Shown here piece by piece: positions 22,121-43,067 of a DNA stretch of 43,067 bases; position 1 is the stretch's first letter, and every line of letters begins with the position of its first letter. The notes below the pieces were generated by a model, which was not told the DNA's origin, made no database searches, and saw only the letters and a program-made list of their open reading frames with translations. Source of the DNA: a virus; the IMG/VR virus record IMGVR_UViG_3300045988_098493, positions 1 through 43,067 of that record, one strand, 5' to 3'. A program made the position numbers and the translations under genes.

Positions 22121-22250
22121 CAGAACGCCCCCTGCTTCCAGCCCGCAGACGGTGCGGCTTTGGGTTCGGGCGGCGGCAGGAACCGGGTGAGCCGCAAGGA
22201 ACGGGAAGCGCTGGAAAAGCGTGTCCTGCGCGGCGAGATCATCACGTTAT

Positions 22251-22326
22251 AACCTCTCAGGCGCTTTGCGCCAGCTCCCCTGATAGGGGAGCCACTGGCG
22301 AGCCGGTTTTGGCGCTGCTGGATGAA
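22251..22326 (+). repeat. Copy a of the ~76-79-nt two-hairpin repeat family
   Basis: AACCTCTCAG-GCGC-TTT-GCGC-CAGCTCCCCT-GAT-AGGGGAGCC-ACTGGCGAGCCGGTTTTGGCGCTGCTGGATGAA. It lies in the divergent intergenic region upstream of the second capsid gene. Confidence 0.85.
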
Positions 22327-22411
22327 AAAAAGCACGAGCTTTCGGAAGGCGATGGACTCCGCGACAGAGTTCGGGCGATTCTGAAACAATAAACCATTAG
22401 GAGGAAAGACC

Positions 22412-23440
22412 ATGAAAGACAAGACCATGAAGCTCGACTTGCAGCTGTTTGCACAGGCAAGCACCGAGCTGAAGAACACCACTTCGACGTCCGGCATGAC
22501 CGCCGAGATGAAAACCTACTACGAAAAGCGTCTGCTGGATCAGGCGGAACCGGCGCTGGTGCATGACCAGTTCGGCGACAAGTACCCCATTCCGCAGAAC
22601 GGCGGCAAGACCATCGAGTTCCGCAAGTACGACAGTCTGCCCAAGGCGACCACCCCGCTGACGGAAGGCGTGACCCCGAACGGTCAGGCGCTGAACGTCT
22701 CCACCATCACCGCCGAGGTGAAGCAGTACGGCGGCTGGACCCCCATCACTGACACCCTGCAGCTGACTGCCATCGATAACAACATCGTTCAGGCGACCAA
22801 GATCCTTGCGTCTCAGGCGGGCCGCACCATCGACAGCGTGACCCGCGATATCCTTGCGGGCGGCACGAACGTCATCTATGCGCCGAAGGTGGGCACGGAC
22901 GGTGCAGAGACGGCGGTGACCAGCCGCGCAACGCTGGACACGACCTGTCAGCTGACCTCGAAGCTCATCATGAAGGCGGCCACCCAGCTGAAGGCGATGA
23001 ACGCGGATCCCATCGATGGCGGCTACATCGCCATCATCCACCCGTATGCGTCCTATGACCTGCGGAATGACCCGGCATGGATCGACGTGCACAAGTATGC
23101 CCAGCCGGACGAGATCTACAACGGCGAGATCGGCAAACTGCACGGCGTGCGCTTCGTGGAGACGAGCGAAGCGAAGATCTGGAAGGGCACGGGCTGCCCC
23201 AGCGGTCTGGCCGTGTTCGGTACGCTGATCTTGGGCGCTCATGCCTACGGTGTGACCGAACTGGAAGGCGGCGGTCTGGAACACATCGTCAAGCAGCTGG
23301 GCTATGGCGACGACCCGCTGAACCAGCGTGCTTCCGTGGGCTGGAAGGCCACCCAGACCGCAGAACGTCTGGTGGAGCAGTACATGGTGCGCATTGAGAG
23401 CTGCTCGAAGGAATACAGCGCCATTGCGGCGGCGAACTAA
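22412..23440 (+). CDS. Second major capsid protein, HK97-fold (resembles the N4-gp56-type MCP family common in Clostridia phages), with a Prp-type N-terminal motif
   Basis: AGGAGG lies 7 nt upstream. 342 aa. The N-terminus is MKDKTMKLDLQLFAQAS. The core, SAEMKTYYEKRLLDQAEPALVHDQFGDKYPIPQNGGKTIEFRKYDSLPKATTPLTEGVTP, matches my recollection of this MCP family. It is unrelated in sequence to the capsid gene at 10374-11192. Confidence 0.78.
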   Translation: MKDKTMKLDLQLFAQASTELKNTTSTSGMTAEMKTYYEKRLLDQAEPALVHDQFGDKYPIPQNGGKTIEFRKYDSLPKATTPLTEGVTPNGQALNVSTITAEVKQYGGWTPITDTLQLTAIDNNIVQATKILASQAGRTIDSVTRDILAGGTNVIYAPKVGTDGAETAVTSRATLDTTCQLTSKLIMKAATQLKAMNADPIDGGYIAIIHPYASYDLRNDPAWIDVHKYAQPDEIYNGEIGKLHGVRFVETSEAKIWKGTGCPSGLAVFGTLILGAHAYGVTELEGGGLEHIVKQLGYGDDPLNQRASVGWKATQTAERLVEQYMVRIESCSKEYSAIAAAN

Positions 23441-23514
23441 CCTCTCAGGCGCTTTGCGCCAGCTCCCCTAGCAGGGGAGCCATTGGCAGGTCGGTTTTGG
23501 CTCTGCTGGATGAA
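23439..23514 (+). repeat. Copy b of the two-hairpin repeat family
   Basis: It starts within the TAA stop codon of the capsid gene. The first 41 nt are identical to copy a; the loop of hairpin 2 differs (AGC instead of GAT). Confidence 0.85.
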
Positions 23515-23573
23515 AAAGGCGTCTCAAAACCGGAAACAGTTTGGCCCTGCAGAAAAGGGCAGAAGGAGTTTAT

Positions 23574-23840
23574 ATGGCAGTCAAGAAACAGACCGAAGAG
23601 AACCAGAACGCGGAAGCGGTGGAAAAGGAGCAGAAGGAGCTTGTGCCCATCCGGCTGTTCTCGGACGGCGGGCGGTACAAGGGCGACCTGTTCGTGAGCG
23701 TGAACGGCGTGAACTACCAGATCAAGCGCGGTGTGACCGTGAACGTGCCGCCTGAGGTGGCCGAGGTCATCCAGCACAGTCAGGAGCAGGACGACCAGAG
23801 CGCGGCCCGCATGGAAGAGATCATTCAGAGAAGCGAATAA
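23574..23840 (+). CDS. Small capsid-adjacent protein (88 aa), function unknown (possibly scaffold or decoration)
   Basis: AAGGAG lies 7 nt upstream of the ATG at 23574. Product: MAVKKQTEENQNAEAVEKEQKELVPIRLFSDGGRYKGDLFVSVNGVNYQIKRGVTVNVPPEVAEVI. A terminator-like hairpin follows. Confidence 0.6.
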   Translation: MAVKKQTEENQNAEAVEKEQKELVPIRLFSDGGRYKGDLFVSVNGVNYQIKRGVTVNVPPEVAEVIQHSQEQDDQSAARMEEIIQRSE

Positions 23841-23849
23841 AGACCCGTT

Positions 23850-23887: not shown

Positions 23888-23914
23888 GTAACCACAGAGG
23901 GGAGATAGATAAAA

Positions 23915-26295: not shown

Positions 26296-26317
26296 ACCTC
26301 AAAGAAGGAGATGCCAG

Positions 26318-29267: not shown

Positions 29268-32200
29268 ATGGCGGTCACAAAAAGCCAACTTGCGCAATGG
29301 AGCAAGGAATATGAAGCGAAGCACCCGGACCGGAAAAACAAAGATACCTATCAGGGAAAGACTACGGCGCAGACGACCGCGGCGGCACAGCCGAAAACGG
29401 AACGAGTCACCCGAGAGCAGCTTGCACAGTGGGGCAAAGAATTTGATGCCAAGCAACAGGCCAAGAAAACGCAGGAGCGGGAAAACCTGTATGCGGCCGC
29501 CTATGACAGCTACCGGACGAACAACAATCTGGGGCTGGCGGACGAACTGGACAGCCGGAGTGACTGGCTGAACCAGCAGGACCTTGGGACCAAGGATGTT
29601 TACAAAGACGTGAACCGGTGGCGGGACACCGACGACAACCAGAACCTGATGGACGCCGTGCGGCGGGTGGACAGCACCCACGGAGCCTATACGGACGCGG
29701 ACCTGATCAAAAACGGCGGGTGGACACAGGCACAGATCGACCGGGCACGGGAGATCAATGCACAGTATGACACCGTTCCGCTGCTGGAAAAGGCCGAGCG
29801 GAGAATCGGAAACAGCGCGAAGAGCGTTGCGGCCAATGTTTCCGGCGCGGCGGCGATGGCTGCGGGTGCGCTGCCACAGGCAGTTGGCACGGAAGTGAAG
29901 GACGACGACCGCACCCGCACCCTGATGCGGGCCATCCAGCGCGTGGACGGAACGAACGGCATGTACACGGACCGAGACCTGATCCGGGCCGGATGGACGG
30001 CAGAAGAGATCGCCGATGCCCGTGCCCGACTGGCCCAAGGACAGGCCAGCGTGAAGGTGGACAACCCTGTTTACAACTGGGGCAGGGACACCCACCAAAA
30101 AGGCGAAGAGCTGCTGGCCGATGCACAGGCGGGCGAGAGCGGCGTACAGAAGTTCATGCACAGTGCGGCGCTGAGCGCCGGAGAAAACCTCGTGCTGGGA
30201 GCGGTGAATCCGGCGCTGGTGCTGCCCGTTCTGAGCTTGCAGGGCGCGGGCGACAGTCTGGCGGCCAGCGACGAGAGGGGCGAAAGCCCGGAAAAGGCTA
30301 TGACAAAGGCCGCGCTGAAGTTCGGCGCCGGCTGGGCCATCAACAGAGTGGGCGCGGCAGACCTTGCCAAGACGATGGGTTCCGATTATGCCAAAGATAC
30401 CGTGGCGGGGCAGATCGCGGACTTTGTGCGCGGCATGGCGGGTGAATCTCCGTTTGCACAGCAGTATCCCGCCATTGCGAACGCCGTTTCGGGCGGCATC
30501 GACAACGCCATGCAAGCGTTCGTGGAGAGCTATGCTGATCAGGCTATCGATGCAGCACTGGGCGACACGGAGACCGCCCAGAAGATGTTCACCAAGGAAA
30601 ACTTCCTGAGCGCACTGGAAAGCGGGCTTTCGGGCGGTGTATCCGGCGCGATGGGCGGCGCTGCGGGCACAGGCGTGGGTGCTGTGAAAGAAAAGGCAAA
30701 ACAGACGGCGGTGAATGCGGCACAGGAACGGGCGGCTCAGGCCGGACAGACCATCCAGCAAACGGAAACGGCAGCGAAAAAGACCCAGCAGCGCACACAG
30801 GAACCCGGGATGCAGAGCCAGACTGTGCAGGAAGGGGCAGCGGAAAAAGCAGCGGTCGCGGAACCGAAGGCTGAAAGCGCTGCGGAAGAAAAAACGGAAC
30901 CGGCAGAACCTGTGAAAAGCCAGAATGCAAACCCTGCAGTTCGGCAGTTCGAACAGGCTGTGGAAGCCGGTGGCCTGACGGGAAAGACCATACGGCTGTT
31001 TACGCCGGAAGCTGGAAATGAAGCCAACCGTGCCGCGCTGGAAGAAGCCTATGGCGTGAAGCTGCCGGAAACTGCGGCATCGACCCGGCGGATGCTGCGG
31101 GATTTGGCTGCACAACAGAACGAAGTAAAAAGTGCGGCGGCCGCACACCCGGAAATCAAACCGCAGACTGTGGAAAAGGCTGGGGAAATGGTGGAAACCT
31201 CTCAGTCTGCTGGCGCAGACAGCTCCCCTAATGAGGGGAGCCATTGGCAGGACGGGACAGCTGTGCTGGATGAACAAAGCCCAACGGTGCAGAAAATCGA
31301 TGGCCCTGCGGCAGAGGGCAGAGACTACTCGGACGCAGAGCTGAAGGCTGACCCGGCGGCATCTGAGGGCAGCGGCCCGCTGCGGGAAACCTATGGACTG
31401 CGGGAGCCGAGCAGTCAGACGGCCCGACAAGCGGAAGTGGCAAGCACTCTGAAACAGTGGGGCATCAAGAGCGACAGTGCCGTGCAGGACATCAGCCAGA
31501 AGCTGCCCAAAGGTGTGGAAGCCAAGCGGTATGCAGCGGCGGCATCGACCATTTACCGGGTGGCGCAGATGGAAGAGGTGAAGAGCTTCGACGATGCGCT
31601 GAAGCTGGCGGGCGCGATGAACCATACGGCTTTGAATGTGAGCTATGTGCTGGACAGCGGCGACGCCGGACGGCTGGCGCTGAAGCAAGCTTATCTCTAT
31701 GGTGCGGATATCAAAGAACAGCCGAACTATGGCGGTCAGCTGACGAGCATGAGCACGAGCGGAGAAGGAACCGTTTATTACAAAGGAACACTGGACCACA
31801 ACGGGGCCGACATGGGAAGCCGCCTGATCGAGCTGAATGCAAAAGCCACCGGCACGGATGCCATTTTGCAGAACGTGCTTCAGAATGACCCAAATGTAAA
31901 AGCCTACGTGGACACGGAAACAGGGCGTATTTTCTTCGGCGACAGCGTGACAGATCTGTTTGGGACCATCCTGCACGAGGATTATCATTGGTATAACTCG
32001 CTGGACAGCGAGGGAGCAAAGACGCTTCAGGATCATGCCCTGCAGTATCTGGCCGAGATGGACGGATACGAGAGCGTCGATGAGATGATCCGGGAAAAGC
32101 TGGACGTCTATGCACGGCAGGGATTGACCTATGCACAGGCCGCTGAAGAGCTTGTAGCGGATGCATGGCGGGGAATCTTTTCGACGGAAGCAGATTTCAA

Positions 32201-35200
32201 GTGCTGGGTGGAGTTCCAGCGCGGTCAGGCTGAGAAAAACGCGGGCACAGCGGGCAAGGTGAAGGCTGTAATGAACCGGGTGAAGAAGTTGCTGACGGAC
32301 ATCATCAGCCGCGCAAAGGAAGTTCTGACCCATGACCCGGACAATGCGGCCGCGCTGAAAGCGAAGCGTCTAGCCGAAGCAGAACGGCGTATTTTACAGG
32401 ACGAATATTTTGCCCATGCGGAAAAGGCGATGGACAACCTGCGGGCGGCAAAAGAAAACGCCGCTGCCCTCAAAACAGAGGACACGGCGGGAAGAAAAGG
32501 GATTCGGTTCTCGATTCAGAAAAATGCTGACGGTGAAAGCTACATCAAGATCGACGAAGATATTCTAAAGGATGTTCCGCAGGAAGAATGGAAAGCGGTC
32601 GTCAAGCAGACCATTAAAGACCGGTATCCAAATGGTTTTCAGCGGAACGGATGGACGATTTTGAATCATAAAGATGGAAGAAGTGAATTTGTTCGTTCTA
32701 AATCAACGATGATGTTGCAACGAAGCAATGAAAAGATTTATGTAGATAAAATGCGGATGGCCGCGAATCTGGATGAGATCATTCAAACGGCGGATGAAGT
32801 GTATCGTGAACCCGCAAATCATAAGAATGCAGAAGCATTCAACCGAGGAAAAATCGAAATTCAGGTCGGTCAAAATTTCTATGAGGCGGATGTTCTGACG
32901 GCTATCAAGGCAGATGATCGGGAGATTTTCTATGATATCGTTAATATCGCCCCGGTAAACAATAAAGCCCTCTCGCGTACCCACATGGAATCGAATGATT
33001 CGGGGAGTAGTCTGCGAGAAGGCTTTATAGAACCCTTCGGTGGTACCCACATAGAATCCGAAGATTCAAGGAGTAGATTGCCGAAGGGTTCGATGGAGAC
33101 CTCCGGCAAAGCCCACATGGAATCCGAAGATTCGGGGAGCAGAGGGTCGGAAGTCTCTAAACAAAGTATAGCACAAGATTTCACTGAAAGCAAGAGAACC
33201 GACGAACCTGTGAAAAAATCGGTGCGGTTCCAGCTGGGAACGCCGGTGGAGGTGGACACCAAGAAGGACCTTGTGGCGGTCCACAACCTGACGGAAGAGA
33301 ATCTGAAGGAATCGTTGGAGCTGGGAGGGATGCCGTCGCCGTCCATCGCGGTGGTCAAGGCGCAGGAAGGGCATACGAAGTATGGTCCTATTTCGCTGGT
33401 GTTTGGCTCGGATACCATTGACCCGGCGGTGAACAGCGCAAACCGCGTTTATGGTTCGGATGCGTGGACCCCGACAAGGCCGAATGTGGAGTATAAGATA
33501 AACGAGAAGGCACGGAACCAATTTGAAACCGCAGTAGACGACGCAAGCCGCAACGCTTTTGAAGGGAAATTTGCAAACAGCTCGGCTTTGCAGCGGATCG
33601 GCGTCGGCGATGTGAGCGGCGAGAGCCGAACGGAATTGGCCCAGAGACTGCAGAACGACACGGCGGTGCAGCTGGCCTATCTGAAGGCCAAGGGCGAAAC
33701 AGTGGAACCAGTGTATAAAACGGAACGGGACCAGTTCGACAGCCTTGGAAACGATGCCTTGGAAAAGGTCATCGAACATGTAGGCGGGGATGACCTCCGG
33801 GCAGTTTTTGAAAACGGTGACTTTGAACTCATGGACCAGCTGGCAGACAAAGCGGCAGATGCACTGGAAGAAAAGTACACCCATGGAACGCTGGAAGGAC
33901 AGAACCGGCGCTGGCAGATGCGGATCGATAAGCTGCGGAACAGCAACCGTGACCGGCTGTATGGGATGCTCGAGCACGCCTATAAGATGCTGACGGACAC
34001 CAGCGGCGGAAAGCCGACACTGGATGTGGAAGGGACGAGGACCGCGATTCGGGAAGCTGCCCCGGAAAATGAGGTCAAAAATTGGGTCTATGAGCAGCTG
34101 GGCAGCGTCTTAGGCGAGAAAGGAATCCGGAACAGCAAGGACCGTTTTACAGCGGGCGGAAAGAGCCGGACCTTTGAACAGCTGCACAACCCTTACACGC
34201 TGCAAAATCTTGTGGCGGCAATGAACCAGCAGAACGCCAGAGGGCAGGATGTCTGGGGGCTTTCGGCCAATACCCTGATGAGCACCGCGACGGCAGAATA
34301 TCAGAATCTGGACGAGGTACGGGCGGACAAAGGCCGCTTGCAGCAGATGCCGGAAGAAGAGTATCAGAAGCTGCTGAAACAGGCAGACCAGCAGATCGAA
34401 GCAGTCATCGACCAGCTCCGGAAAGAAACAACTGCGCACGCCGACAACAGCTTCGAAGAACGGGAAATCCTTGGTGATATCCTTCTGCGGGCTGCGCAGG
34501 GAAAACAGACCATGGCAGCGGTGACCAAAGCATTCGCGAAAGAAGATTATGCCATCAGCCGTGAGACGGCAAAGCAGATCGTGGCGCTGTACAAAACCAT
34601 TGCGGACATCCCGACCGGTTACTTTGAAGCAAAGCCCCAGCGGGCGGTGGACTTTGAGGAAGTCCGGGCGGCGATCGTGCCGGATAACACATCTTCGGAG
34701 GTGCTGAATGCGCTGAAGGAAAAGGGCGTGACCGTCTACGAATACAAGGCCGGAGACGATGCCCAGCGCACGAAGCTGCTGAATCAAGTGCCGAATGTCC
34801 GGTTCCAGCGTGCCGATCAGGCTGACCGGGATGCAAAACGGAACCGCCAGAGACAGGCCAGCCGGGTGATCGCGGACAACAGCGCGGCCATCCGGACGCT
34901 GACTGAGATGATGGGCCTGACCCGGGGCGTGCGGGTGAGCGATGACAGCATTCTGGGCAAAGCTGAACAGCTGATCAAAGCCAACGGCGCAAAGGGAAAG
35001 GCGGATGCGGAACATGTGGCGCGGGAGATGCGGACGCTGCTCGAGTACATGCGGACGGACGGCGCAGACATGAACAAGGCGCAGGGCCTTGGCGAAACGA
35101 TCGCGGGCGAGATCCTTGACCATGCGACCTACCGGAACACAGAGCTGTGGGAGCAGTTCCCGGAATACCATGATCTGAGCTATACTGTAGACAAAAACGG

Positions 35201-38200
35201 CAAAGCGAAAGCGGAACTTGTGCGCCAGTATGGCAGCTGGGGCGAAGCGGTAGCCGAAGCCAGACGCCACGGTGTGAAGCTGCGGCAGGAAGAAGGTCAC
35301 CGGGACGGCAACCCGGCGGAACAATATGAATCCATCGTCAACGATACCCGGGCCACGGGCGGCGTGAAGGACGGCGCGGCGGCGCTGTTCCGGAGTGCGG
35401 CAAAGGCAGCGGGCGTAGAGGGTGCGGCCAGCATGGAGAGCACCGAGTGGCTGGACGTGCTGATGAACGTGCATGACGCCATCAAGCCGAAGATGATGAG
35501 CCGGTTTGAGGATGTGTCTGAGTATGAGGACGCCAAGGTGGAACTGGCGGGCCGGATCATCGGGGAACTGATGAACGTGCCCGAGATGAGCGACGCACAG
35601 GCTATTTTTGACTCTTTCCAGCAATGGCAGCGAAAGGCCGCTGCGGCAGCAGCCGGAGACGAAGAACGTGCAGCCAAGGCTGTGAAGGACCTGAAGAGCG
35701 TGCAGAAAGAGCAGAGAAAGGAATTTGACCGGCGGCTGCGGGAAAATCAGAAATCCGGAAACCAGAGCGATGCTGTGCAGCAGATGACAGAAGCGGAACG
35801 GCTGTTGGACGAGAATCTGGATGCACTGGGCGTGGACATCACCAATGCGGGCGACATGGCGGAGAAGCTGGATGTGCTGAAGGAAGCCTACGAGCGGGAA
35901 TGGAAAGCAGAGCGGAAGCGGCTGACGGATGCCCGGCAGGAAATGCTGGATGAAATCGCGCTGGAACACCGGGAACTGCGGACGCAGATCGATAGTCTGA
36001 GCGCAGAAGTTGCCGGAGAACGGCGCAGAGCCGACTTTGCGGAACAGCAGCTGATCTATCAGCAGGACGAGATGATGGAATGGGCTGTGGAGAATAACCG
36101 GAAGAAAGAAGAATGGGAGGAAAAACAGCGCATCCGGAACGAAAAGGCCAAGGAACTGATGGAAAAGCACGAAGCAGAAAACAAGGCCCATGCTCAGATG
36201 ATCGCTGAAAAGCGGGTGCAGCGGGTGCGGGATGGCCGGAAGGCAGAAGAACTGAAGCGGAGTATCCGGAATAATCTGGCCCAGCTGAACCAGATGGTAC
36301 TGCGGCCGACAAAGGGCAAATATGTGCAGCCGCGGCTCATCCAACAGGCGATCGAGGTGGCGAAGCTGGCAGACATGACCATCCTGAACGAAACCGCAGT
36401 ACGGCAGCTGACGGTGCTGGAAACGAGCATCAGCCAGACGATGGGCGACGCAAACGACCCCAGCAGCCTTGCCTACGACTGGGACAAGACCGGCGTGCCG
36501 AAGATGATCCAGACCCTGCGGGCGGACCTGACGAACACGAAACAGGCAAAGCTCGACAAGCTGCACCAGCAGCTGACCGAAGCCGAAGCGCTGGGCGACA
36601 GTGACAAGGCTGAACAGCTGCGGGACCGGCTGAAGCGGCGGATCAAGGAGACCGAAGCAAGGACCTATCTGCCCATGACGGTGGACCAGCTGCGGATGCT
36701 GAAGGCCATCACGGCGGGAACGCTGCATGTGATCCGGACTGAGAACAAGACCTTGAGCCTTGCCAAGACTGAAGAGATCGACACCTTTGCCCAGAACGCA
36801 GGGTTGGAAGTGCTGGCTGCAAAGGGCAACGAAATGGGACGGCTGCGGGACATGCTGACCAAGTATAACCTTGATATGCTGGGGGCAAAGCGAGTGTTCC
36901 GGATGCTGGGCGGCTATGCCAAGAACAGCCAGATGGAGCGGATCGCCGACATGCTGAACGACGGCCAGCGGCGGCAGACCGAGATCACAGTGGAAGGAAC
37001 GAAGCTGTTTGACGATGTGACCGGCAAGGCAAACCTCAAGCAGATGGAAAAATTCGCAGGACCCGGCGCGGAGTTGGTGGACATCGGCCTGAAGGACCGG
37101 AGGAGCAGAGCTGTGCCCTTGACCCACGCCCAGCTGTGCAGCCTTTACATGCATTTGCAGAACGCGGACAGCCGGGAGCATTTGCTGAACGGCGGTCTGG
37201 TCCTGCCGGATGCAAAGAAGTACAACAAGGGCAAGATCGAACGGGCGTATCAGCAAGGGCAGACCGTGCAGATCGGGATGCTGACGGACAGCGAAGGAAA
37301 CGCTATGGCAGACACGATCCTGAACGCGGTGGAAAATGCCTTGACGGACTACGACCGGGCGTGGATCGCGGACATGCAGGAGTTTTTCGGCAATTATACC
37401 ACGAAGCTCATCAACGAAACGAGCATGAAGCTGGTAGGCTTCCAGCGGGCAAACGTGAAGAACTATTACCCCATCGCGGTGGACCGGGCACAGCTGGCAA
37501 CCGAGATCGAGGGCCTGAAGCTGGATGCGACCATCGAAGGACGCGGCTTTTTGAAAGAGCGTGTGAAGAGCGGCAAGCCCATCTTGCTGGAAGAGTGCAG
37601 CAGCGTCGTGCAGCGAAGCTTGCGGGATACGGCAGCATACGCAGGACTGGCTGCACCCATCCGGGATGCGAACCGAATCCTGAATGCTGATGTGGAAACG
37701 CGGGACGGCATCGGAAAGTTGAAGAACGGCATCATTAAGGAACATTGGGGTCAGGATGCTGTGAACTACATGGATTACCTGCTGACGGACCTGCAATCGA
37801 AGCAGCGGAAGCGCTCGGACGGCATCGGGCGTGTGATGAGACGGAATTACGCAGGGGCGATCCTGACACTGAACCCCGGCGTTGCCATCGCACAGGCGGC
37901 GTCTCTGCCCACGGCGGGTGCGGTTCTGGGCAGCGATACCATGGCGGCAGTTCTGCCCTTCGTGAAGAATCTTTCTTCCAAGCAGCGGACCGCGCTGGAA
38001 GCTGAGATCAGCAAGCACGGGGATGCCCTGCTGCAATACCGTTTGCGCGGGAGCCAGCGCGGAGAACTGGCATCCGTCGGCGTGGACAATGGAGCCGTGC
38101 AGAACCTGATGGATGCCCTGCCTAAGAGCGTGACCGGCTGGATCAACGGCATGGATGAGATCACGGTCGCGGCTCTGTGGGAAGGTGCGAAGCATTATGT

Positions 38201-39713
38201 GGAGCACCACCCGGCGGAATTTGACGACGGTGCAAAGACAAAAAACAGCGAAGAATATTGGGCGGCAGTCAATCAGATGTATCAGCGGGTCATTGAGGAG
38301 ACCCAGCCGAACTATACCGTGATGCAGCGGGCGGGTATCCAGCGAAGCGACAACGAGATCACCAAGACGCTGACCATGTTCACAACTCAGCGCTTCCAGA
38401 ATTACGGCATCCTGGCCGACGCCGTGATGGACTATAACGCTCAGAAGGCGCGGTATAGGACCCAGAATAACGAGCAAAATAAGGCGGAACTGGACCGTGC
38501 GGGCCGGAATCTGCGGCGGGCGGCATCCAGTCAGGTGATCCAGACCGCAGTTTTTGCATTGATGAAAATCGGCGCGGACTTCCTGCTGCACCGCTGGGAC
38601 CGGGAACAGGACGAGAACGGAGATGTGACCGCCAAAAGTCTGTGGAACCGGTTTGCAGGGCTGTTCACGGAGAGTGCGGCGGGAAACTTCCTGTTTGGCT
38701 CTGAGGTCTACAGCATCATCGGCAATGCTGTGAACGGGACGGATTATGATGTGGTGAGCGCTACCAACATCAGCGCTGTCAACGACCTGTTTGCCGCGAC
38801 TTCGAAACTGTACACACTGATCCGGAAGGACACCACCGGCATGGACGAAGAAGAACTGGACGCATATCACCAGAAACTCCGGAAGGCGGGCGTCAACGTG
38901 ATGGAATACGGGTTGGACATCCTCGGTGTTCCGGCAGCGAATGCCCGGAAGATGGTGGATGCATTCGGGGCCTATGCGGAAGATGTGAAGGGCCTTGCAA
39001 AGGGCGAAGGAATCAGTCTCAGCTCTGCACCCAGCTCGGCCACCGGACAGTATGACCGGCTGTTCAACGCCATCCAGAGCGGCGACAGCGACGAAGCGAA
39101 AGCGGCGCTGAAAAAGCTGGACCAGATGGGAAAGACCGACCAAGTGGACAGCCAGCTGAAGAGCCGGCTGAAAAAATACGATGATGATATTCTGGATGCG
39201 GCCAAGGCCCGGAATGAGGGCAAGGACAAAGACCGGCAGGACGCGACAAAGCGATGCATCCTGAAGCTATATGATGCCATGGGCATCGAGCGGACCGGCA
39301 AAGGTGACGTGGCCAAGCGGGAAGAAGTGATCGACCTTGTGACGAGCGCTGTGAATGCCAAGGCTGACGAACTGCTGAAGGCCAAGGACGATGGCAGCAG
39401 TTACAGCAGCGTTTACGGCGGCCTGACCGATGCACTGGAAAGCGGACGCGCGAAGGACGTGAACGACGAGATCAGCCGACTTCTGACGGCGGGCAAGAGT
39501 GCGGATGCTATCAAGTCGGCCATCACAGGACAGGTGAAGGACGAGTATCTGGCAGGAAGCAGCGCCGACCGGAAGAAGCTGGAAACCATGCTGCTGAAGC
39601 TGAGGGCGGATGGAAAGGCACTGTATGAGGAAAAGAACTTCGAAACGTGGTTGAAGGATGCAGAAAAACAGAAGGCGACCGCGAAGAAGGATGAGTGGAA
39701 GGGGGTAAGATAA
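29268..39713 (+). CDS. Giant 3481-aa virion-associated polyvalent-type protein (HExxH metallopeptidase-like motif, Gly-rich hydrophobic segments, a low-GC inserted domain, long coiled coils)
   Basis: An uninterrupted 10.4-kb ORF. HEDYH is encoded at 31974-31988 within DLFGTILHEDYHWYNSL. The hydrophobic G/A-rich zone spans aa ~300-480 and the K/E-rich coiled coil spans aa ~2050-2250. The architecture recalls the polyvalent proteins of phages and conjugative elements. Confidence 0.85.
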   Translation: MAVTKSQLAQWSKEYEAKHPDRKNKDTYQGKTTAQTTAAAQPKTERVTREQLAQWGKEFDAKQQAKKTQERENLYAAAYDSYRTNNNLGLADELDSRSDWLNQQDLGTKDVYKDVNRWRDTDDNQNLMDAVRRVDSTHGAYTDADLIKNGGWTQAQIDRAREINAQYDTVPLLEKAERRIGNSAKSVAANVSGAAAMAAGALPQAVGTEVKDDDRTRTLMRAIQRVDGTNGMYTDRDLIRAGWTAEEIADARARLAQGQASVKVDNPVYNWGRDTHQKGEELLADAQAGESGVQKFMHSAALSAGENLVLGAVNPALVLPVLSLQGAGDSLAASDERGESPEKAMTKAALKFGAGWAINRVGAADLAKTMGSDYAKDTVAGQIADFVRGMAGESPFAQQYPAIANAVSGGIDNAMQAFVESYADQAIDAALGDTETAQKMFTKENFLSALESGLSGGVSGAMGGAAGTGVGAVKEKAKQTAVNAAQERAAQAGQTIQQTETAAKKTQQRTQEPGMQSQTVQEGAAEKAAVAEPKAESAAEEKTEPAEPVKSQNANPAVRQFEQAVEAGGLTGKTIRLFTPEAGNEANRAALEEAYGVKLPETAASTRRMLRDLAAQQNEVKSAAAAHPEIKPQTVEKAGEMVETSQSAGADSSPNEGSHWQDGTAVLDEQSPTVQKIDGPAAEGRDYSDAELKADPAASEGSGPLRETYGLREPSSQTARQAEVASTLKQWGIKSDSAVQDISQKLPKGVEAKRYAAAASTIYRVAQMEEVKSFDDALKLAGAMNHTALNVSYVLDSGDAGRLALKQAYLYGADIKEQPNYGGQLTSMSTSGEGTVYYKGTLDHNGADMGSRLIELNAKATGTDAILQNVLQNDPNVKAYVDTETGRIFFGDSVTDLFGTILHEDYHWYNSLDSEGAKTLQDHALQYLAEMDGYESVDEMIREKLDVYARQGLTYAQAAEELVADAWRGIFSTEADFKCWVEFQRGQAEKNAGTAGKVKAVMNRVKKLLTDIISRAKEVLTHDPDNAAALKAKRLAEAERRILQDEYFAHAEKAMDNLRAAKENAAALKTEDTAGRKGIRFSIQKNADGESYIKIDEDILKDVPQEEWKAVVKQTIKDRYPNGFQRNGWTILNHKDGRSEFVRSKSTMMLQRSNEKIYVDKMRMAANLDEIIQTADEVYREPANHKNAEAFNRGKIEIQVGQNFYEADVLTAIKADDREIFYDIVNIAPVNNKALSRTHMESNDSGSSLREGFIEPFGGTHIESEDSRSRLPKGSMETSGKAHMESEDSGSRGSEVSKQSIAQDFTESKRTDEPVKKSVRFQLGTPVEVDTKKDLVAVHNLTEENLKESLELGGMPSPSIAVVKAQEGHTKYGPISLVFGSDTIDPAVNSANRVYGSDAWTPTRPNVEYKINEKARNQFETAVDDASRNAFEGKFANSSALQRIGVGDVSGESRTELAQRLQNDTAVQLAYLKAKGETVEPVYKTERDQFDSLGNDALEKVIEHVGGDDLRAVFENGDFELMDQLADKAADALEEKYTHGTLEGQNRRWQMRIDKLRNSNRDRLYGMLEHAYKMLTDTSGGKPTLDVEGTRTAIREAAPENEVKNWVYEQLGSVLGEKGIRNSKDRFTAGGKSRTFEQLHNPYTLQNLVAAMNQQNARGQDVWGLSANTLMSTATAEYQNLDEVRADKGRLQQMPEEEYQKLLKQADQQIEAVIDQLRKETTAHADNSFEEREILGDILLRAAQGKQTMAAVTKAFAKEDYAISRETAKQIVALYKTIADIPTGYFEAKPQRAVDFEEVRAAIVPDNTSSEVLNALKEKGVTVYEYKAGDDAQRTKLLNQVPNVRFQRADQADRDAKRNRQRQASRVIADNSAAIRTLTEMMGLTRGVRVSDDSILGKAEQLIKANGAKGKADAEHVAREMRTLLEYMRTDGADMNKAQGLGETIAGEILDHATYRNTELWEQFPEYHDLSYTVDKNGKAKAELVRQYGSWGEAVAEARRHGVKLRQEEGHRDGNPAEQYESIVNDTRATGGVKDGAAALFRSAAKAAGVEGAASMESTEWLDVLMNVHDAIKPKMMSRFEDVSEYEDAKVELAGRIIGELMNVPEMSDAQAIFDSFQQWQRKAAAAAAGDEERAAKAVKDLKSVQKEQRKEFDRRLRENQKSGNQSDAVQQMTEAERLLDENLDALGVDITNAGDMAEKLDVLKEAYEREWKAERKRLTDARQEMLDEIALEHRELRTQIDSLSAEVAGERRRADFAEQQLIYQQDEMMEWAVENNRKKEEWEEKQRIRNEKAKELMEKHEAENKAHAQMIAEKRVQRVRDGRKAEELKRSIRNNLAQLNQMVLRPTKGKYVQPRLIQQAIEVAKLADMTILNETAVRQLTVLETSISQTMGDANDPSSLAYDWDKTGVPKMIQTLRADLTNTKQAKLDKLHQQLTEAEALGDSDKAEQLRDRLKRRIKETEARTYLPMTVDQLRMLKAITAGTLHVIRTENKTLSLAKTEEIDTFAQNAGLEVLAAKGNEMGRLRDMLTKYNLDMLGAKRVFRMLGGYAKNSQMERIADMLNDGQRRQTEITVEGTKLFDDVTGKANLKQMEKFAGPGAELVDIGLKDRRSRAVPLTHAQLCSLYMHLQNADSREHLLNGGLVLPDAKKYNKGKIERAYQQGQTVQIGMLTDSEGNAMADTILNAVENALTDYDRAWIADMQEFFGNYTTKLINETSMKLVGFQRANVKNYYPIAVDRAQLATEIEGLKLDATIEGRGFLKERVKSGKPILLEECSSVVQRSLRDTAAYAGLAAPIRDANRILNADVETRDGIGKLKNGIIKEHWGQDAVNYMDYLLTDLQSKQRKRSDGIGRVMRRNYAGAILTLNPGVAIAQAASLPTAGAVLGSDTMAAVLPFVKNLSSKQRTALEAEISKHGDALLQYRLRGSQRGELASVGVDNGAVQNLMDALPKSVTGWINGMDEITVAALWEGAKHYVEHHPAEFDDGAKTKNSEEYWAAVNQMYQRVIEETQPNYTVMQRAGIQRSDNEITKTLTMFTTQRFQNYGILADAVMDYNAQKARYRTQNNEQNKAELDRAGRNLRRAASSQVIQTAVFALMKIGADFLLHRWDREQDENGDVTAKSLWNRFAGLFTESAAGNFLFGSEVYSIIGNAVNGTDYDVVSATNISAVNDLFAATSKLYTLIRKDTTGMDEEELDAYHQKLRKAGVNVMEYGLDILGVPAANARKMVDAFGAYAEDVKGLAKGEGISLSSAPSSATGQYDRLFNAIQSGDSDEAKAALKKLDQMGKTDQVDSQLKSRLKKYDDDILDAAKARNEGKDKDRQDATKRCILKLYDAMGIERTGKGDVAKREEVIDLVTSAVNAKADELLKAKDDGSSYSSVYGGLTDALESGRAKDVNDEISRLLTAGKSADAIKSAITGQVKDEYLAGSSADRKKLETMLLKLRADGKALYEEKNFETWLKDAEKQKATAKKDEWKGVR
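31196..31274 (+). repeat. Copy d of the two-hairpin repeat family, embedded in frame in the giant ORF
   Basis: AACCTCTCAG-TCTGC-TGGC-GCAGA-CAGCTCCCCT-AATG-AGGGGAGCC-ATTGGCAGGACGGGACAGCTGTGCTGGATGAA. It translates as TSQSAGADSSPNEGSHWQDGTAVLDE. Confidence 0.85.
32979..33150 (+). repeat. About 2.6 tandem copies of a 66-bp (22-aa) in-frame repeat in the giant ORF
   Basis: Units start at 32979, 33045 and 33111 (ACCCACATGGAATCGAATGATTCGGGGAGTAG...). Translation: THMESNDSGSSLREGFIEPFGG / THIESEDSRSRLPKGSMETSGK / AHMESEDSGSRGSE. Confidence 0.85.
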
Positions 39714-39825: not shown

Positions 39826-42051
39826 TTGAAGGTAAAGATCATCAAATCGTGCTTCGGGGGCGTGGAATTCTTGGCACAGCCCAAAGTGCTGGTGCTGGGC
39901 GGCGTGGGAAGCGCGGGTGTGGAGCGGCTGGAATTTACGCTGCCGCGCGAGTGGGCCGGGATGGCCGTGACGCTGCACATCGAGCAGGAAGGCGGCGGAC
40001 TGCCGCAGCCCATTCTGCTGGATGCAGCGAACAGCGCCATGGTGGACAAGCGGTTCACGGCGGTGCGGCGGGGCATCTGGATGCTGCTGGCCGTGGACGG
40101 CAAGGGATACACGGCCATGACCCGGCCCGCAGAATACCGGTGCAGCCCCAGCATCGACCTGAACTCGACGCTGGAGGACATCCCGGAGAGCGTATACGAA
40201 CAATTCATCGCCCGCGTGCTGAAGGACGCGGCAGCTGCTCAGGCGGCAGCGGCCAGCGCAGAGCAGGACGCCAAGGCCGCACAGGAAGCGGCGGCACTGA
40301 GCCAGAAAGCCGCCTTGGAAGCCGCTGAACAGGCCGGAAAGGCGGGCGAGGGCCTGACGAACCGGGAACGGTGGTGGCTGCTGGAACTGCTGCGGCGTGC
40401 GGCATACACGGACCCGGCATCGAAAGACATCCTTGCAAAGCTTGGCGAGGCATGGGAGACGGTGCGGGTGGAACAGATCGTATTGAGCCAGAGCTATCAG
40501 GCGCTGGAAGCCGGTGCAGACTTTACGCTGACAGCCGACGTGCTGCCGGACGATGCCGCCGACAAGACGGTGAGCTGGACGACCGGAAACAGCGACGTTG
40601 TGGCGCTGACACCCGGCGGAACGGACAACCAAAACTGCACCGTGCGGGCCATGGGCGAGGGCATCGCCATGATCGCCGCGAAAGCCGGGGCGAAACAGGC
40701 TGTTTGCGCGGTATACGTCAAGGCCGCTGTGGTGGCCGTGGAGAGTATCCGGCTGGACAAGACCAGCGCGGCGGTGACCGAGGGCGGGACCCTGACTCTG
40801 ACGGCCACGGTGATTCCCGACAACGCCACAGACCGAACCGTGTCGTGGGCCGTTTCGCCCGCCGACGTGGCCGAGATCAGCACCAACGGAACGGTCTGCA
40901 CCGTGAACATCAAGGCAGCGGGGAGCGCTGTGGTGACAGCATCGGCCCAAGGATGTACGGCGTCGTGCACCATCACGGCGACCGAAAAGCCGGTGGAGGT
41001 GGTCAGCGTAACGCTGAGTGCCGAGACGCTGGACCTGACCGAAGAGGACACCGCCCGCCTGACGGCGACGGTCCTGCCCGAGAATGCGACAGACCGGACG
41101 GTGACGTGGACCAGTTCGAACCCGAACACGGCTACGGTGGCCGACGGCGTCGTGACGGCGGTGGGCGAAGGAACGGCGCGGATCACGGCACAGGCGGGGA
41201 ACAAGACGGCCAGCTGCACCGTGAACGTGGCCGCGAAGAAGGTGTATTACTCCATCGCCTACCGGCTGACCCATGTGAACACCAGCAGCACCCTTGTGGT
41301 GGTGGAAAAGGGCAAGAGCTATGCCACCGCCCTGACCGCAGAGAGCGGCTACAAGCTGGGAAACGCCAGCTGCACGATGGGCGGCACGGCCATCGACGTG
41401 GCCGACGGCGTGGTGGAGATCGCCAGCGTGACGGGGAACATCATCCTGACGGCCAGCGCAGACGCCATCCGGGTGACGAGCGTGAGCCTGAACCGCACGA
41501 GTCTGGACTTGACCGTGGGCGGCAGCGCCGCGCTGACTGCGGCCGTGAAGCCGGACGATGCGCTGGACAAGACCGTGACATGGAGCAGCAGTTCGAGCGC
41601 GGTAAGCGTTTCGGACGGCGTAGTGAAGGCCGTGAGCACCGGAAACGCTGTGGTGCGGGCAACTGCCGACGGCGTGAGCGCGGATTGTACCGTGAGCGTG
41701 ACGAAGAAAACGAACATTACGAGACTGTATGCATACGCAGTCACGAACAATGGACAGAGTTCTCATGACGAAATCTCGTATGCCGGTGTGCTGGAAGTTT
41801 ACTGGCAGCCGAATCACGCCGGGTATGCGGACGAGCTGGAAATCAGCAACTCAAACCCGTCTCATTTCAGCGTGACGACATCGGGTGACGTTGGGTCGGG
41901 ACTGCTCTACTTCACCGAAGGTTATGGCGAGAGCTTTGCAAAGCTTGTGTACAACGTGAACGTAACGAACCATGTGGTCGGCGAGAGCACGACTGTGACG
42001 GTAAAGGCCGGAAAACTGGTGCAGTCGGTCCGATTTACCATTACGCGCTGA
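39826..42051 (+). CDS. Multi-Big_2 tail/baseplate protein (741 aa; BppU-like N-terminus, Ala-rich coiled coil, about five Ig-like repeats)
   Basis: TTG start with AAAGGAGGG 6 nt upstream. Coiled segment: AAAAQAAAASAEQDAKAAQEAAALSQKAALEAAEQAG. There are repeated ...LTATVLPxxAxDKTVxWxSSN...V...G.V.A...G.A.ITA Big_2-type units. An internal module is paralogous to the two fibres. Confidence 0.8.
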   Translation: MKVKIIKSCFGGVEFLAQPKVLVLGGVGSAGVERLEFTLPREWAGMAVTLHIEQEGGGLPQPILLDAANSAMVDKRFTAVRRGIWMLLAVDGKGYTAMTRPAEYRCSPSIDLNSTLEDIPESVYEQFIARVLKDAAAAQAAAASAEQDAKAAQEAAALSQKAALEAAEQAGKAGEGLTNRERWWLLELLRRAAYTDPASKDILAKLGEAWETVRVEQIVLSQSYQALEAGADFTLTADVLPDDAADKTVSWTTGNSDVVALTPGGTDNQNCTVRAMGEGIAMIAAKAGAKQAVCAVYVKAAVVAVESIRLDKTSAAVTEGGTLTLTATVIPDNATDRTVSWAVSPADVAEISTNGTVCTVNIKAAGSAVVTASAQGCTASCTITATEKPVEVVSVTLSAETLDLTEEDTARLTATVLPENATDRTVTWTSSNPNTATVADGVVTAVGEGTARITAQAGNKTASCTVNVAAKKVYYSIAYRLTHVNTSSTLVVVEKGKSYATALTAESGYKLGNASCTMGGTAIDVADGVVEIASVTGNIILTASADAIRVTSVSLNRTSLDLTVGGSAALTAAVKPDDALDKTVTWSSSSSAVSVSDGVVKAVSTGNAVVRATADGVSADCTVSVTKKTNITRLYAYAVTNNGQSSHDEISYAGVLEVYWQPNHAGYADELEISNSNPSHFSVTTSGDVGSGLLYFTEGYGESFAKLVYNVNVTNHVVGESTTVTVKAGKLVQSVRFTITR

Positions 42052-42062
42052 GGGGATGGACC

Positions 42063-42317
42063 ATGAAGAAGATCTACGACAGTGAGGGAAACCTCATCTA
42101 TCCACGGGCCGGGGACAGCATTTCGGACGAGGAAAAGGCGCTGATGCTTGCCCTGTTTGAAGTGGCTGCAAAAAGCAGCGAGGCGGCCCGCCAGAAGTAC
42201 GAGCAGCTAAAGGAGCTTTGGAGCGCGGAAGGACCCGACGGACCCGACGGACCCGGCGAAACGACCGCCGTTCTGGGCAGGGCTGTTCTGGGCTATGCCA
42301 TTTTGGGAAGGAGCTGA
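42063..42317 (+). CDS. Small tail-module protein (84 aa)
   Basis: GAGGGGA lies upstream. MKKIYDSEGNLIYPRAGDS...GPDGPDGPGETTAVLGRAVLGYAILGRS. It is tightly packed between the Big_2 protein and the fibre gene. Confidence 0.55.
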   Translation: MKKIYDSEGNLIYPRAGDSISDEEKALMLALFEVAAKSSEAARQKYEQLKELWSAEGPDGPDGPGETTAVLGRAVLGYAILGRS

Positions 42318-42321
42318 AGCA

Positions 42322-43067
42322 ATGAAATACACAAAACAAACGTGGACCGACGGCGTGACCGTATTGGATGCCGCGACGATGGAGCACATCGAACAGGGCA
42401 TCGCGGATGTGACCGATGCGGTGACGGAATTGCAGGAGAACGGCGGGAGTGGGAACACGGGCGGCAGCAGCGGTCTGAGCAGCACCGCCAAAACTCTTAT
42501 CTTGTCGCTGTTTGAGTCGGCAGCCTATGGCAATGCGGCCATGCAGAGCCAGCTGGACGCGCTCAAGACCGAGTTCGGCCAGAGCACGGGCGGCGGAGAC
42601 AGCGGCGACGTAGTGGAGTTCTGCAACATCGCATACAGCCTAAGTCATGTAACCAGCGCGGCTGGCGGCATTTCTACTGCGGTCCAGAAGGGCAAATCCT
42701 TCACGGATACCCTGACAGCGGCCTCCGGCTTCACCATGTCCAGCGTGACCATCAAAATGGGTGGCGCAGACATTACGTCCAGCGCCTACAACGCCAGCAC
42801 CCGGGTGGTGAGCATTGCCAGCGTGACCGGAAATGTGACCATTACGGCAACGGCGGTGGCAGCCACGGTCGCGGTGTCTAGCGTGTCCCTGAACAAATCC
42901 ACCCTCAGCCTGACCGAGGGCAGCAGCGAGACGCTGACGGCCACAGTCCTGCCCAGAAACGCCACCAACAAGACCGTGACATGGACGGTCTCGCCCAGCG
43001 GTTATGCGACGGTTTCCGGTGGTGTGGTCAAGGCCGTCAAGGCGGGCAGCTGCACGGTCACGGCCAC
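42322..43067 (+). CDS. Second tail fibre / receptor-binding protein, paralogue of 1-944; 3' end runs off the window
   Basis: ATG at 42322 with GGAAGGAG 8 nt upstream. The frame is open to the window end, and it is absent from the ORF track because there is no stop codon. MKYTKQTWTDGVTVLDAATMEHIEQGIADVTDAVTELQENGG.... From about aa 55 onward it is collinear with the left fibre, but it lacks the collagen-like run. Confidence 0.8.
   Translation, partial: MKYTKQTWTDGVTVLDAATMEHIEQGIADVTDAVTELQENGGSGNTGGSSGLSSTAKTLILSLFESAAYGNAAMQSQLDALKTEFGQSTGGGDSGDVVEFCNIAYSLSHVTSAAGGISTAVQKGKSFTDTLTAASGFTMSSVTIKMGGADITSSAYNASTRVVSIASVTGNVTITATAVAATVAVSSVSLNKSTLSLTEGSSETLTATVLPRNATNKTVTWTVSPSGYATVSGGVVKAVKAGSCTVTA
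42484..43067. repeat. Right copy of the window-terminal inverted repeat (partner 1-580)
   Basis: See the left copy (1-580). The last 75 nt are the exact reverse complement of the first 75 nt. Confidence 0.9.

Follow-up and report, generated by a model that had tools for sequence, protein, structure and literature searches.

A viral contig with two unrelated capsid genes: probable head-to-head fusion of two truncated Faecalibacterium prophages

FP_Lugh (Lughvirus; NC_047912) and Aster (PP479941), with genomes of 34.1 kb and 35.5 kb, are temperate phages of Faecalibacterium (PMC5883640, PMC11792537). They are the nearest named phages to the siphovirus arm of the locus described here, whose host and lifestyle they share. 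The second arm follows the overall plan of the Bacillus megaterium phages Page, Pony and Pascal (Pagevirus), in which the late operon runs TerS-TerL-portal-scaffold-MCP-small genes-tail proteins-giant protein-lysis, although the Pagevirus hosts differ in phylum-level group and GC content and, beyond the MCP, no right-arm protein has a tblastn match in Page. More similar is a podovirus-type family within Faecalibacterium, examples of which are IMGVR_UViG_3300045988_094703, MT836159 and a prophage at ~1.07 Mb in F. prausnitzii UT1 (NZ_CP170812). The locus resembles defective or cryptic prophages and polylysogen rearrangements in its genes cut part-way, its missing integrase and repressor, its microhomology of ~3 nt and the adjoining of two lineages of one host; it differs from them in that its genes show no further decay and in being known from a contig without bacterial flank. 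Satellites of the cf-PICI type, which form their own capsids, carry an integrase and regulators of their own together with a small, coherent set of head and packaging genes whose layout is conserved. They too have a capsid gene adjoining another phage's genes, but no such integrase, regulators or head-packaging layout of its own is found here, and the present layout is unique to this sequence.

We analyzed the whole 43,067 nt of IMG/VR record IMGVR_UViG_3300045988_098493, referred to as the window herein (Table 1). Our analysis suggests that the window probably consists of two truncated Faecalibacterium prophages, one siphovirus and one podovirus-type, that are fused head-to-head via one illegitimate junction and are defective as a unit. 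High-GC Faecalibacterium is the host: on the podovirus side, related loci are embedded in F. prausnitzii chromosomes, and on the siphovirus side, the TerL cluster is named F. prausnitzii and lies on contigs of up to 237 kb.

Table 1. Features of the 43,067-nt window. Arms are named from the left; a dot marks features without strand.
Feature	Position	Strand	Basis or remark
Exact 75-nt terminal inverted repeat, left copy	1..75	.	reverse complement of 42993-43067
Fibre-like gene, siphovirus arm, 5' fragment, 314 codons	1..944	-	runs off left end
Lughvirus-like siphovirus arm	961..22119	-	Pfam; tblastn to FP_Lugh; synteny in 80 IMG/VR relatives
gp36-like protein, 384 aa	2115-961	-	left arm
Tal	3136-2132	-	left arm
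Dit	4005-3133	-	left arm
Tape measure protein (TMP)	6994-4019	-	left arm
Neck and tail genes	between MCP and TMP	-	left arm
MCP, 272 aa	11192-10374	-	PHROG 267, 5.6e-31
Scaffold	11762-11208	-	left arm
MuF	13675-12134	-	left arm
Portal	15159-13672	-	left arm
TerL	16412-15156	-	left arm
TerS	17091-16399	-	left arm
Regulator-like gene	17611-17195	-	left arm
RusA	18108-17608	-	left arm
Primase	20482-18257	-	left arm
Helicase	22120-20489	-	left arm
Stump of gene preceding helicase in siphovirus lineage (FP_Lugh gp13 homologue, DUF669/SSB-like)	22120..22185	-	last 21 codons + stop
Recombination junction	22186..22190	.	identity flip between lineages; TGA 22188-22190 = possible microhomology
Stump of podovirus-lineage scaffold gene (Prp protease-scaffold fusion in relatives)	22187..22252	+	last 21 codons + stop
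Intergenic double-hairpin, copy 1	22250..22329	+	further copies 23438-23517, ~24307-24391
Podovirus-type MCP, 342 aa	22412..23440	+	PHROG 1357; Pfam; relatives
88-aa protein	23574-23840	+	post-capsid block; gene calls on identical contig L172
130-aa protein	23915-24307	+	PHROG 12105
618-aa protein	24439-26295	+	C-terminal half matches PHROG 511 'internal virion protein'
63-aa protein	26318-26509	+	post-capsid block; gene calls on identical contig L172
194-aa protein	26506-27090	+	post-capsid block; gene calls on identical contig L172
471-aa protein	27105-28520	+	paralogue of 194-aa protein
HicB antitoxin	28572-28982	-	HicB_lk_antitox 6.8e-5, below cut-off
HicA toxin	29003-29200	-	Pfam HicA_toxin 6.5e-19
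Polyvalent protein, 3481 aa, intact	29268..39713	+	Pfam PBECR5 3.8e-78
741-aa protein, four Big_2 domains	39826-42051	+	Pfam; PHROG 215 'structural protein with Ig domain'
84-aa protein	42063-42317	+	follows 741-aa protein
Fibre-like gene, right arm, 5' fragment, 248 codons	42322..43067	+	runs off right end; last 75 nt = inverted copy of 1-75

The left arm has the same gene order as FP_Lugh and Aster from helicase to Tal. By tblastn, its identity to FP_Lugh is 88% for the helicase, 76% for the primase, 82% for RusA, 78% for TerS, 82% for MuF, 72% for the TMP and 80% for Tal, and the Aster helicase is 87% identical. This colinear, highly similar block places the arm among the Lughvirus-like phages. 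The head genes are mosaic relative to FP_Lugh, with a portal of 26% identity and no match for the MCP, and FP_Lugh lacks the terminal fibre-like gene with collagen repeats. A preliminary description of the window, made from the sequence alone, had taken the left arm for a complete siphovirus. This holds for the packaging and morphogenesis set but not for the phage as a whole, as integrase, repressor, early region and lysis genes are all missing from the 43,067-nt window. In Lughvirus-like phages, the region upstream of the helicase encodes a tyrosine integrase, a LexA-like repressor, early functions, a Sak4 or ERF recombinase and an SSB-like protein; of the FP_Lugh set, gp01-gp12, which include an AAA ATPase and Sak4, have no counterpart, and SSB-like gp13 is down to 21 codons. 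The right arm had been described as occupying the position of a lysogeny/early module, and it does so precisely, exactly replacing the integrase-repressor-early-Sak4-SSB block of FP_Lugh.

To either side of the junction, the DNA belongs to different lineages. Siphovirus relatives aligned across it are 72-80% identical on the left and 23-35% on the right, while podovirus relatives are 39% identical on the left and 81-85% on the right. At the nucleotide level, ~50 siphovirus relatives align as far as 22185-22190 and ~40 podovirus relatives from 22188 onward. Only ~3 nt of microhomology and no shared k-mer are present at the join. The 290-bp gap described earlier between the arms is not empty, as it holds the ends of two genes, one on the minus strand (22185-22120) and one on the plus strand (22187-22252). 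The SSB-like stump reads RFLPPPEPKAAPSAGWKQGAF before its stop, and the 162-aa gene of one relative (L093) ends with RFLPPPAPTAAPSTGWKQGAF; likewise, the scaffold stump reads VSRKEREALEKRVLRGEIITL, and the gene of another relative (L001) ends with MTRSQREALERQALHGAKISF. In a further podovirus relative (L012), the scaffold carries Peptidase_Prp at its N-terminus. The repeat at 22250 was considered as the join and rejected, since it lies wholly within podovirus-derived DNA and is a double hairpin typical of the family, present in three copies. Copies 1 and 2 are 90% identical across 80 nt, the predicted folds form two hairpins with compensatory changes in the first hairpin of copy 3, and the element occurs at the matching position in podovirus relatives. 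A scan for sigma-70-like promoters around the junction found none, a weak negative given that the host is one of the Clostridia.

The right arm opens with an MCP that matches PHROG 1357 'major head protein' at 3e-95 and scores above the Pfam cut-offs for Phage_capsid_4 and Phage_capsid_3 (PF25209, PF13252). Identity to the MCPs of Page, Pony and Pascal is 37% over 90% of its length; the protein also matches solved capsid proteins weakly and has homologues of 74-93% identity at 466 IMG/VR and 151 genome loci. The window does carry two MCPs on one contiguous sequence, as first described, and they are unrelated at the level of sequence, the 342-aa and 272-aa proteins belonging to separate PHROGs (1357 and 267) and giving E=0.3 in BLASTP. 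It was also correct that the right arm lacks a portal, terminase, protease and scaffold, as none of its products matches such families in Pfam or PHROG; nor does it encode an integrase, a regulator or functions that interfere with a helper. The assignment of capsid, portal and terminase proteins is settled by profile hits together with synteny. Downstream of the MCP, the genes from 23574 to 28520 keep their order among podovirus relatives, and the pair of paralogues and the multi-Big_2 protein noted earlier are both borne out. For the 471-aa product and for a 633-aa ORF that contains the 618-aa gene, sequence comparison gave no useful relative of solved structure. The HicAB pair is an insert on the strand opposite to the right-arm genes that sets the window apart from its podovirus-type relatives; a plus-strand ORF called at 28581-29123 was discarded in its favor. 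The 3481-aa protein pairs PBECR5 with an LPD3 match of 0.0025, below cut-off, and PBECR with LPD is the combination of polyvalent proteins. A giant gene holds the equivalent position in podovirus relatives and in Page, and in the closest podovirus relative it is followed by a 764-aa Big_2 protein. Exact-product look-ups returned no record for both MCP start variants, the primase, RusA, the 633-aa ORF or a 488-aa ORF. One contig of 79,317 bp encodes proteins identical to the 471-aa, 3481-aa and 741-aa products of the right arm and no identical left-arm proteins. A low-coverage contig (L295) departs from the right arm at 33306 into Faecalibacterium chromosomal genes, a switch that would reflect either chimerism or a second variant.

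We compared the window with 160 podovirus relatives (80 IMG/VR and 80 genome loci) and 80 siphovirus relatives from IMG/VR, 240 in total. The podovirus family is recognized in the window by its PHROG 1357 MCP, its hairpin element between scaffold and MCP and a conserved downstream order of small genes, 130-aa, ~620-aa and paralogous 194/471-aa proteins, giant polyvalent protein and Big_2 protein. Upstream of the MCP, these relatives carry a scaffold directly adjacent (78/80 IMG/VR and 80/80 genome loci), a P22-type portal (70/80 and 76/80) and TerL (62/80 and 70/80), whereas of the Prp-scaffold gene just the final 21 codons are left in the window. Siphovirus genes occur in none of the 160 podovirus relatives, so that the right arm is indeed found without the left arm and the window arrangement is absent there. 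Similarly, no right-arm genes occur in the 80 siphovirus relatives, all of which keep the repressor, Cro-side early region, Sak4 and SSB-like gene that the window has lost.

Both ends of the window lie in fibre-like genes. Their outer 160 nt differ by only 2 mismatches when compared in inverted orientation. Since the exact 75-nt inverted repeat lies inside these two genes at both ends, the contig stopped at a collapsed repeat, at the point from which the fibre-like genes of the two arms are identical inverted copies. Genes for integrase, repressor and lysis may be located past it. The left fragment contains a collagen-like Gly-X-Y run and then a Big_2-type region, and its homologues are ~350-430 aa with Pfam Collagen and Big_2. 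Another assembly breaks in this gene at ~645 in window coordinates, and three others end within the right fibre-like gene at 42750-42817. An exact scan of viral, JGI metagenome and GTDB genome collections for the terminal 47-mer gave no hit.

The junction recurs outside the IMG/VR record. Contigs from assemblies ERZ1749357 and ERZ28622153 (SAMN03283293) span it at 100% identity, and the GenBank TPA proteins DAL32381 to DAL32413 are numbered across both arms in the same order. Going by contig names in ERZ1749357, the junction contig is covered at 2.13x and the contig with the end of the right arm at 2.12x. The identical junction in two other assemblies and this match in named coverage with the right arm make a one-off assembly chimera unlikely. 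All further copies apparently come from one study, and an exact scan of IMG/VR and JGI metagenomes for the junction 38-mer found none.

This evidence also bears on the possibility that two co-resident phages were linked by a faulty join or in a chimeric molecule, formed during sequencing or library preparation, and that assemblers working on the same or sibling libraries repeated the link. Such an origin would fit the mid-gene break on both sides and the inverted orientation, which are typical of chimeric molecules, as well as the ~2x coverage of the ENA contigs, the seemingly single project behind all extra copies and the odd mid-gene switch to host DNA in L295 from the same assembly. We nevertheless consider it improbable: the identical junction appears in at least three assemblies from different pipelines, including a 43-kb contig that passes it unbranched, the join has ~3 nt in common and no shared k-mer, junction and right-arm contigs have equal depth by name, and the siphovirus/podovirus junction is reproduced elsewhere while the L295 switch is not. 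The preliminary description had raised the possibility of a chimeric assembly with its join in the 22251 repeat, but the join lies 62 nt leftward, at 22186-22188, and is seen at 100% identity elsewhere. Another reading is a viable recombinant, in which a Lugh-like siphovirus carries a fragment of a podovirus late operon as cargo in place of its left arm, with lysogeny and lysis genes beyond the collapsed repeat of a circular or permuted genome. Intact ORFs in both arms, a complete siphovirus packaging and morphogenesis set, the cataloguing of the contig as viral in JGI/IMG and as a GenBank TPA record, and a near-identical fibre sequence ending both arms, compatible with a single host range, all speak for it. 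Even so, it is unlikely in our judgment, as two genes are cut mid-frame, functions kept in 80/80 relatives (repressor, Cro-side early region, Sak4 and SSB-like gene) are gone, >43 kb plus unseen sequence exceeds the intact 34-35.5 kb genomes by >25%, the inverted rather than direct terminal repeat does not close a circle, and the junction 38-mer is missing from IMG/VR and JGI metagenomes.

Away from the junction, all genes of both arms are full length, including the 10.4-kb ORF, and we found no further decay. This fits a very recent event, but it also fits function. We also weighed whether a Lugh-like siphovirus or defective prophage keeps the expressed podovirus capsid, ejection-type and 3481-aa proteins as useful, with selection holding the ORFs intact. 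We regard this living hybrid as very unlikely; if true, it might serve in interference with superinfecting podoviruses of that family or in loading the polyvalent protein into siphovirus particles. Less probable still is an evolved satellite-like or dual-capsid system in which the right arm builds a capsid or giant-protein carrier by using the portal and terminase of its neighbor. An intact MCP, internal-virion-like genes and an intact polyvalent protein do stand beside a complete packaging set, and both a satellite and a dual-particle phage had been offered as explanations. Against these, the break falls mid-frame in two genes, the arm retains at its start 21 codons of its own scaffold gene, and none of the 240 relatives (0/240) shows the arrangement. 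The arm also has no integrase, regulator or helper-interference genes and amounts to no more than the 21-kb 3' portion of an ordinary podovirus late operon whose gene order is conserved. Moreover, the two capsid proteins are unrelated in sequence, and each would presumably mismatch the portal or scaffold of the other lineage. The closest of the earlier proposals was a degraded second prophage beside the first, except that the arms meet head-to-head rather than tail-to-tail and that both are truncated.

Taken together, the identity flip at the junction, the two gene stumps and the comparison with relatives favor a fusion of two truncated prophages. A single illegitimate recombination at 22186-22188 would have joined two unrelated temperate Faecalibacterium lineages head-to-head. 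The left arm is the helicase-to-fibre part of a Lughvirus-like siphovirus that lost its integrase, repressor, early region, Sak4 and most of its SSB-like gene. The right arm is the capsid-to-fibre part, the downstream two-thirds, of a podovirus-type prophage that lost all of its upstream region, with TerL, the P22-type portal and most of the Prp-protease/scaffold. The simplest origin may be a deletion between neighboring, divergently oriented prophages on one chromosome, although an inversion that broke both prophages is also compatible. Probably the second capsid gene is a leftover outside any working module, as it stands without a scaffold or portal of its own lineage and no late promoter was found ahead of it. 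Because the composite is at least 44 kb, compared to 34-35 kb for intact relatives, and the siphovirus control region is gone, the locus is most likely a defective (cryptic) prophage inherited with its host, that is, an ordinary rearranged prophage and not a new type of two-capsid element.

For the catalogs, the finding is a caution: a contig listed as one virus in JGI/IMG and as a GenBank TPA record is two phage lineages joined mid-gene, so that genome counts, host links, taxonomy and completeness estimates taken from it would be wrong. It also draws attention to a podovirus-type prophage family with a P22-type portal, a Prp-scaffold fusion and giant polyvalent proteins that is very common in Faecalibacterium. 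No podovirus-type prophages are described in the Faecalibacterium prophage papers PMC5883640 and PMC11792537; phage Epona was rejected as a podovirus, since it is published as myovirus-type. If the junction is chromosomal, the locus would be a clean, dated instance in which one rearrangement inactivated prophages of an important gut commensal.

The window (GC, 58-64%) has two divergent gene arms, and profile searches assigned the minus-strand arm a siphovirus gene set (see table). The plus-strand arm opens with a 342-aa protein that matched PHROG 1357 at 3e-95 and the Pfam families Phage_capsid_4 and Phage_capsid_3, each above cut-off. Aligned across 90% of its length, it shares 37% identity with the major capsid proteins (MCPs) of three Bacillus podophages, Page, Pony, and Pascal, and it matches solved capsid proteins weakly. 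Judged by its sequence, this product is a genuine MCP, as the preliminary description had held. The two capsid proteins were also said to lack visible similarity, and our pairwise comparison agreed (E = 0.3, not significant). Since profile searches of the right-arm products yielded no matches to terminase, portal, protease, or scaffold families, the earlier observation that this arm is without them was correct.

Features of the two arms and their coordinates in the window
Feature	Position	Strand	Assignment
Helicase		minus	ResIII/Helicase_C
Primase		minus	PriCT_2 + AAA_25
RusA, TerS, TerL, MuF, scaffold		minus	profile searches
Portal		minus	SPP1-type
272-aa capsid protein		minus	PHROG 267, 5.6e-31
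Neck and tail genes, tape measure protein (TMP), Dit, Tal		minus	profile searches
Siphovirus stump	22185-22120	minus	C-terminus of gene preceding helicase
Podovirus scaffold stump	22187-22252	plus	scaffold C-terminus
80-nt element, two hairpins	22250-22329, 23438-23517, ~24307-24391; weak fourth match 31234-31281		right arm
342-aa MCP	22412-23440	plus	PHROG 1357
Several small genes	after right-arm MCP	plus	
618-aa protein		plus	C-terminal half, PHROG 511 "internal virion protein"
194-aa/471-aa paralogue pair	after 618-aa gene	plus	
HicA toxin/HicB antitoxin pair	28572-29200, between 471-aa and giant genes	minus	
3481-aa polyvalent protein	29268-39713	plus	PBECR5, 3.8e-78
Protein with four Big_2 domains, then 84-aa protein, then fibre-like gene	end of right arm	plus	
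Homologous inverted segments	1-379/42689-43067; 475-576/42483-42584		

To the left-arm helicase we found 595 IMG/VR relatives, and the best 80 of these loci carry the order helicase-primase-RusA-TerL-portal-MuF-scaffold-capsid and none of the right-arm genes. FP_Lugh (34.1 kb) and Aster (35.5 kb), both phages of Faecalibacterium, are the named relatives; helicase, primase, RusA, TerS, MuF, TMP, and Tal of FP_Lugh are 72-88% identical to those of the left arm. Searches with the right-arm MCP returned 466 IMG/VR relatives and 151 from GTDB genomes, the latter overwhelmingly Faecalibacterium, with some loci lying within complete F. prausnitzii chromosomes. In the 80 best loci from each set, TerL, portal, and scaffold precede the MCP in that order, and the MCP is followed by genes of 130 and ~620 aa, then the paralogue pair and a giant protein. 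The scaffold was present in 78/80 IMG/VR and 80/80 GTDB loci, the portal in 70 and 76, and TerL in 62 and 70, respectively, shortfalls that likely reflect contigs ending before those genes. The portal of the closest relative is P22-type (PF16510, 1.5e-30), and its scaffold begins with a Prp cysteine protease. In this family the scaffold gene (L012 8641-9987 and L001 4778-5788) encodes a Prp-like protease domain at its N-terminus (PF04327, 2.2e-17) and looks like a protease-scaffold fusion. Left-arm genes were found in 0 of these 160 loci. Each arm belongs to its own phage lineage, and both lineages share one host, Faecalibacterium.

Nucleotide homology to ~50 siphovirus relatives extends through the helicase as far as 22185-22190, where it ends, and homology to ~40 podovirus relatives begins at 22188. 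Compared base by base, siphovirus relatives are 72-80% identical left of this junction and 23-35% right of it, and podovirus relatives 39% left and 81-85% right. At most the TGA at 22188-22190 is common to both sides. The "290-bp gap" previously placed between the arms is not empty: it consists of two joined, head-to-head 21-codon stumps followed by the scaffold-MCP intergenic hairpin element. One stump, RFLPPPEPKAAPSAGWKQGAF*, is the C-terminus of the 162-aa gene preceding the helicase in relatives, a homologue of FP_Lugh gp13 (DUF669/SSB-like); the other, VSRKEREALEKRVLRGEIITL*, is the C-terminus of the podovirus scaffold gene. A promoter scan found no sigma-70-like promoter near the junction.

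Copies of the element (hairpins GGCGC-TTT-GCGCC and CTCCCCT-N3-AGGGGAG) flank the right-arm capsid gene and precede the 618-aa gene; in the third copy the first stem differs yet stays complementary (GTCACC-TTC-GGTGAC). It is found in relatives too, is normal between scaffold and MCP in the podovirus family, and may serve to process or stabilise transcripts, or as an attenuator. The repeat at 22250 had been proposed as the join, which we ruled out because it lies wholly within the podovirus arm, where it occurs three times.

Compared with the FP_Lugh map, the siphovirus part is without the tyrosine integrase, LexA-like repressor, early genes, AAA ATPase, and Sak4, and only a remnant of the SSB-like gene is left. 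On the podovirus side nothing survives ahead of the final 21 scaffold codons, so that TerL, portal, and the rest of the protease/scaffold gene are all missing. The simplest account is a single illegitimate recombination event joining two prophages that one Faecalibacterium strain carried, through either an inversion or the deletion of DNA between divergently oriented neighbours. Such an event would have left the siphovirus morphogenesis set whole and the podovirus late operon headless. We consider the fused locus probably defective as a unit because it lacks lysogeny control, the window has no lysis genes, and the unit is >25% longer than the genomes packaged by its siphovirus relatives. Every ORF is intact, which fits a recent event and also gives some small probability to a hybrid that is viable or useful. 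The suggestions that the right arm is a satellite, or that one element builds two capsids, were not supported, since the arrangement was seen in 0/240 relatives (the 160 podovirus loci plus the best 80 siphovirus loci) and the right arm starts with a broken copy of its own scaffold gene.

An artefactual junction is improbable, even though the assemblies bearing it are shallow and apparently from one project. Two ENA contigs cross it at 100% identity (ERZ1749357 NODE_3898, window 18730-23305; ERZ28622153 scaffold_4152, 18740-22643), and the join has no repeat able to mislead a de Bruijn assembler. Coverage in ERZ1749357 is near equal for the junction contig (2.13x) and a right-arm contig (2.12x). 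In addition, the numbering of GenBank TPA proteins DAL32381 (Tal), DAL32395 (portal), and DAL32401 (helicase) follows window order and continues through right-arm proteins DAL32409, DAL32411, and DAL32413, which indicates a single record spanning both arms. Another ERZ1749357 contig, NODE_970 (L295), tracks the right arm over 23515-33306 and then switches mid-gene to other DNA (L295 9792/9793 = window 33306), cutting the giant gene at codon 1346. Past the switch lie an AT-rich intergenic region and Faecalibacterium MerR/TipA, MutS2, and amidase genes, the MutS2 sharing 86-87% identity with named proteins from Faecalibacterium and as much as 98% with unnamed ones from metagenomes. The switch is absent from other assemblies, which read through 33306, and NODE_970 may be a chimera arising from low coverage or else a variant that is truncated further and adjoins host DNA; the latter case would favour a location in the chromosome.

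The outermost 75 nt at the two ends (1-75 and 42993-43067) are exact inverted copies. Farther in, the match weakens: the outer 160 nt contain 2 mismatches, and across 379 nt identity is ~90%. They sit in two fibre-like genes, one closing each arm, of which the left has a collagen-like run before a Big_2-type region common to both; homologues are ~350-430 aa. Because both genes carry the inverted copies and other assemblies likewise break off within them, we conclude that a collapsed inverted repeat ended the contig and that the window does not amount to a complete replicon. The rise in similarity toward the ends suggests recent exchange or gene conversion of a receptor-binding part between the two phage lineages of one host.

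The stretch previously read as a 180-aa plus-strand ORF is the HicA/HicB pair on the opposite strand, and it looks like a recent moron-type insert because only 2/160 podovirus relatives match there. In the giant gene, three 66-nt tandem units lie at 32980-33164 with locally low GC, and GC is 0.495 across 32001-33000; the giant proteins of relatives differ greatly in size, from 2685 to over 3034 aa, and in how their domains are ordered. The TMP gene has a 47-nt direct repeat (4689-4735/5970-6016; 81% identical, 1281 nt apart), probably an internal duplication. In protein cluster data, a 79,317-bp public contig encodes proteins identical to the right-arm 471-aa, 3481-aa, and 741-aa products and to none of six left-arm products looked up, with helicase, Tal, portal, TerL, and the 272-aa MCP compared by cluster record and helicase and Tal also by contig block. 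This contig may represent the parental podovirus-type prophage in intact form, or it may continue the window locus to the right.

Taken together, the second capsid module is real and its explanation ordinary, most likely a fusion of two truncated prophages, and the main value of this fused locus is as a warning for virus catalogues.
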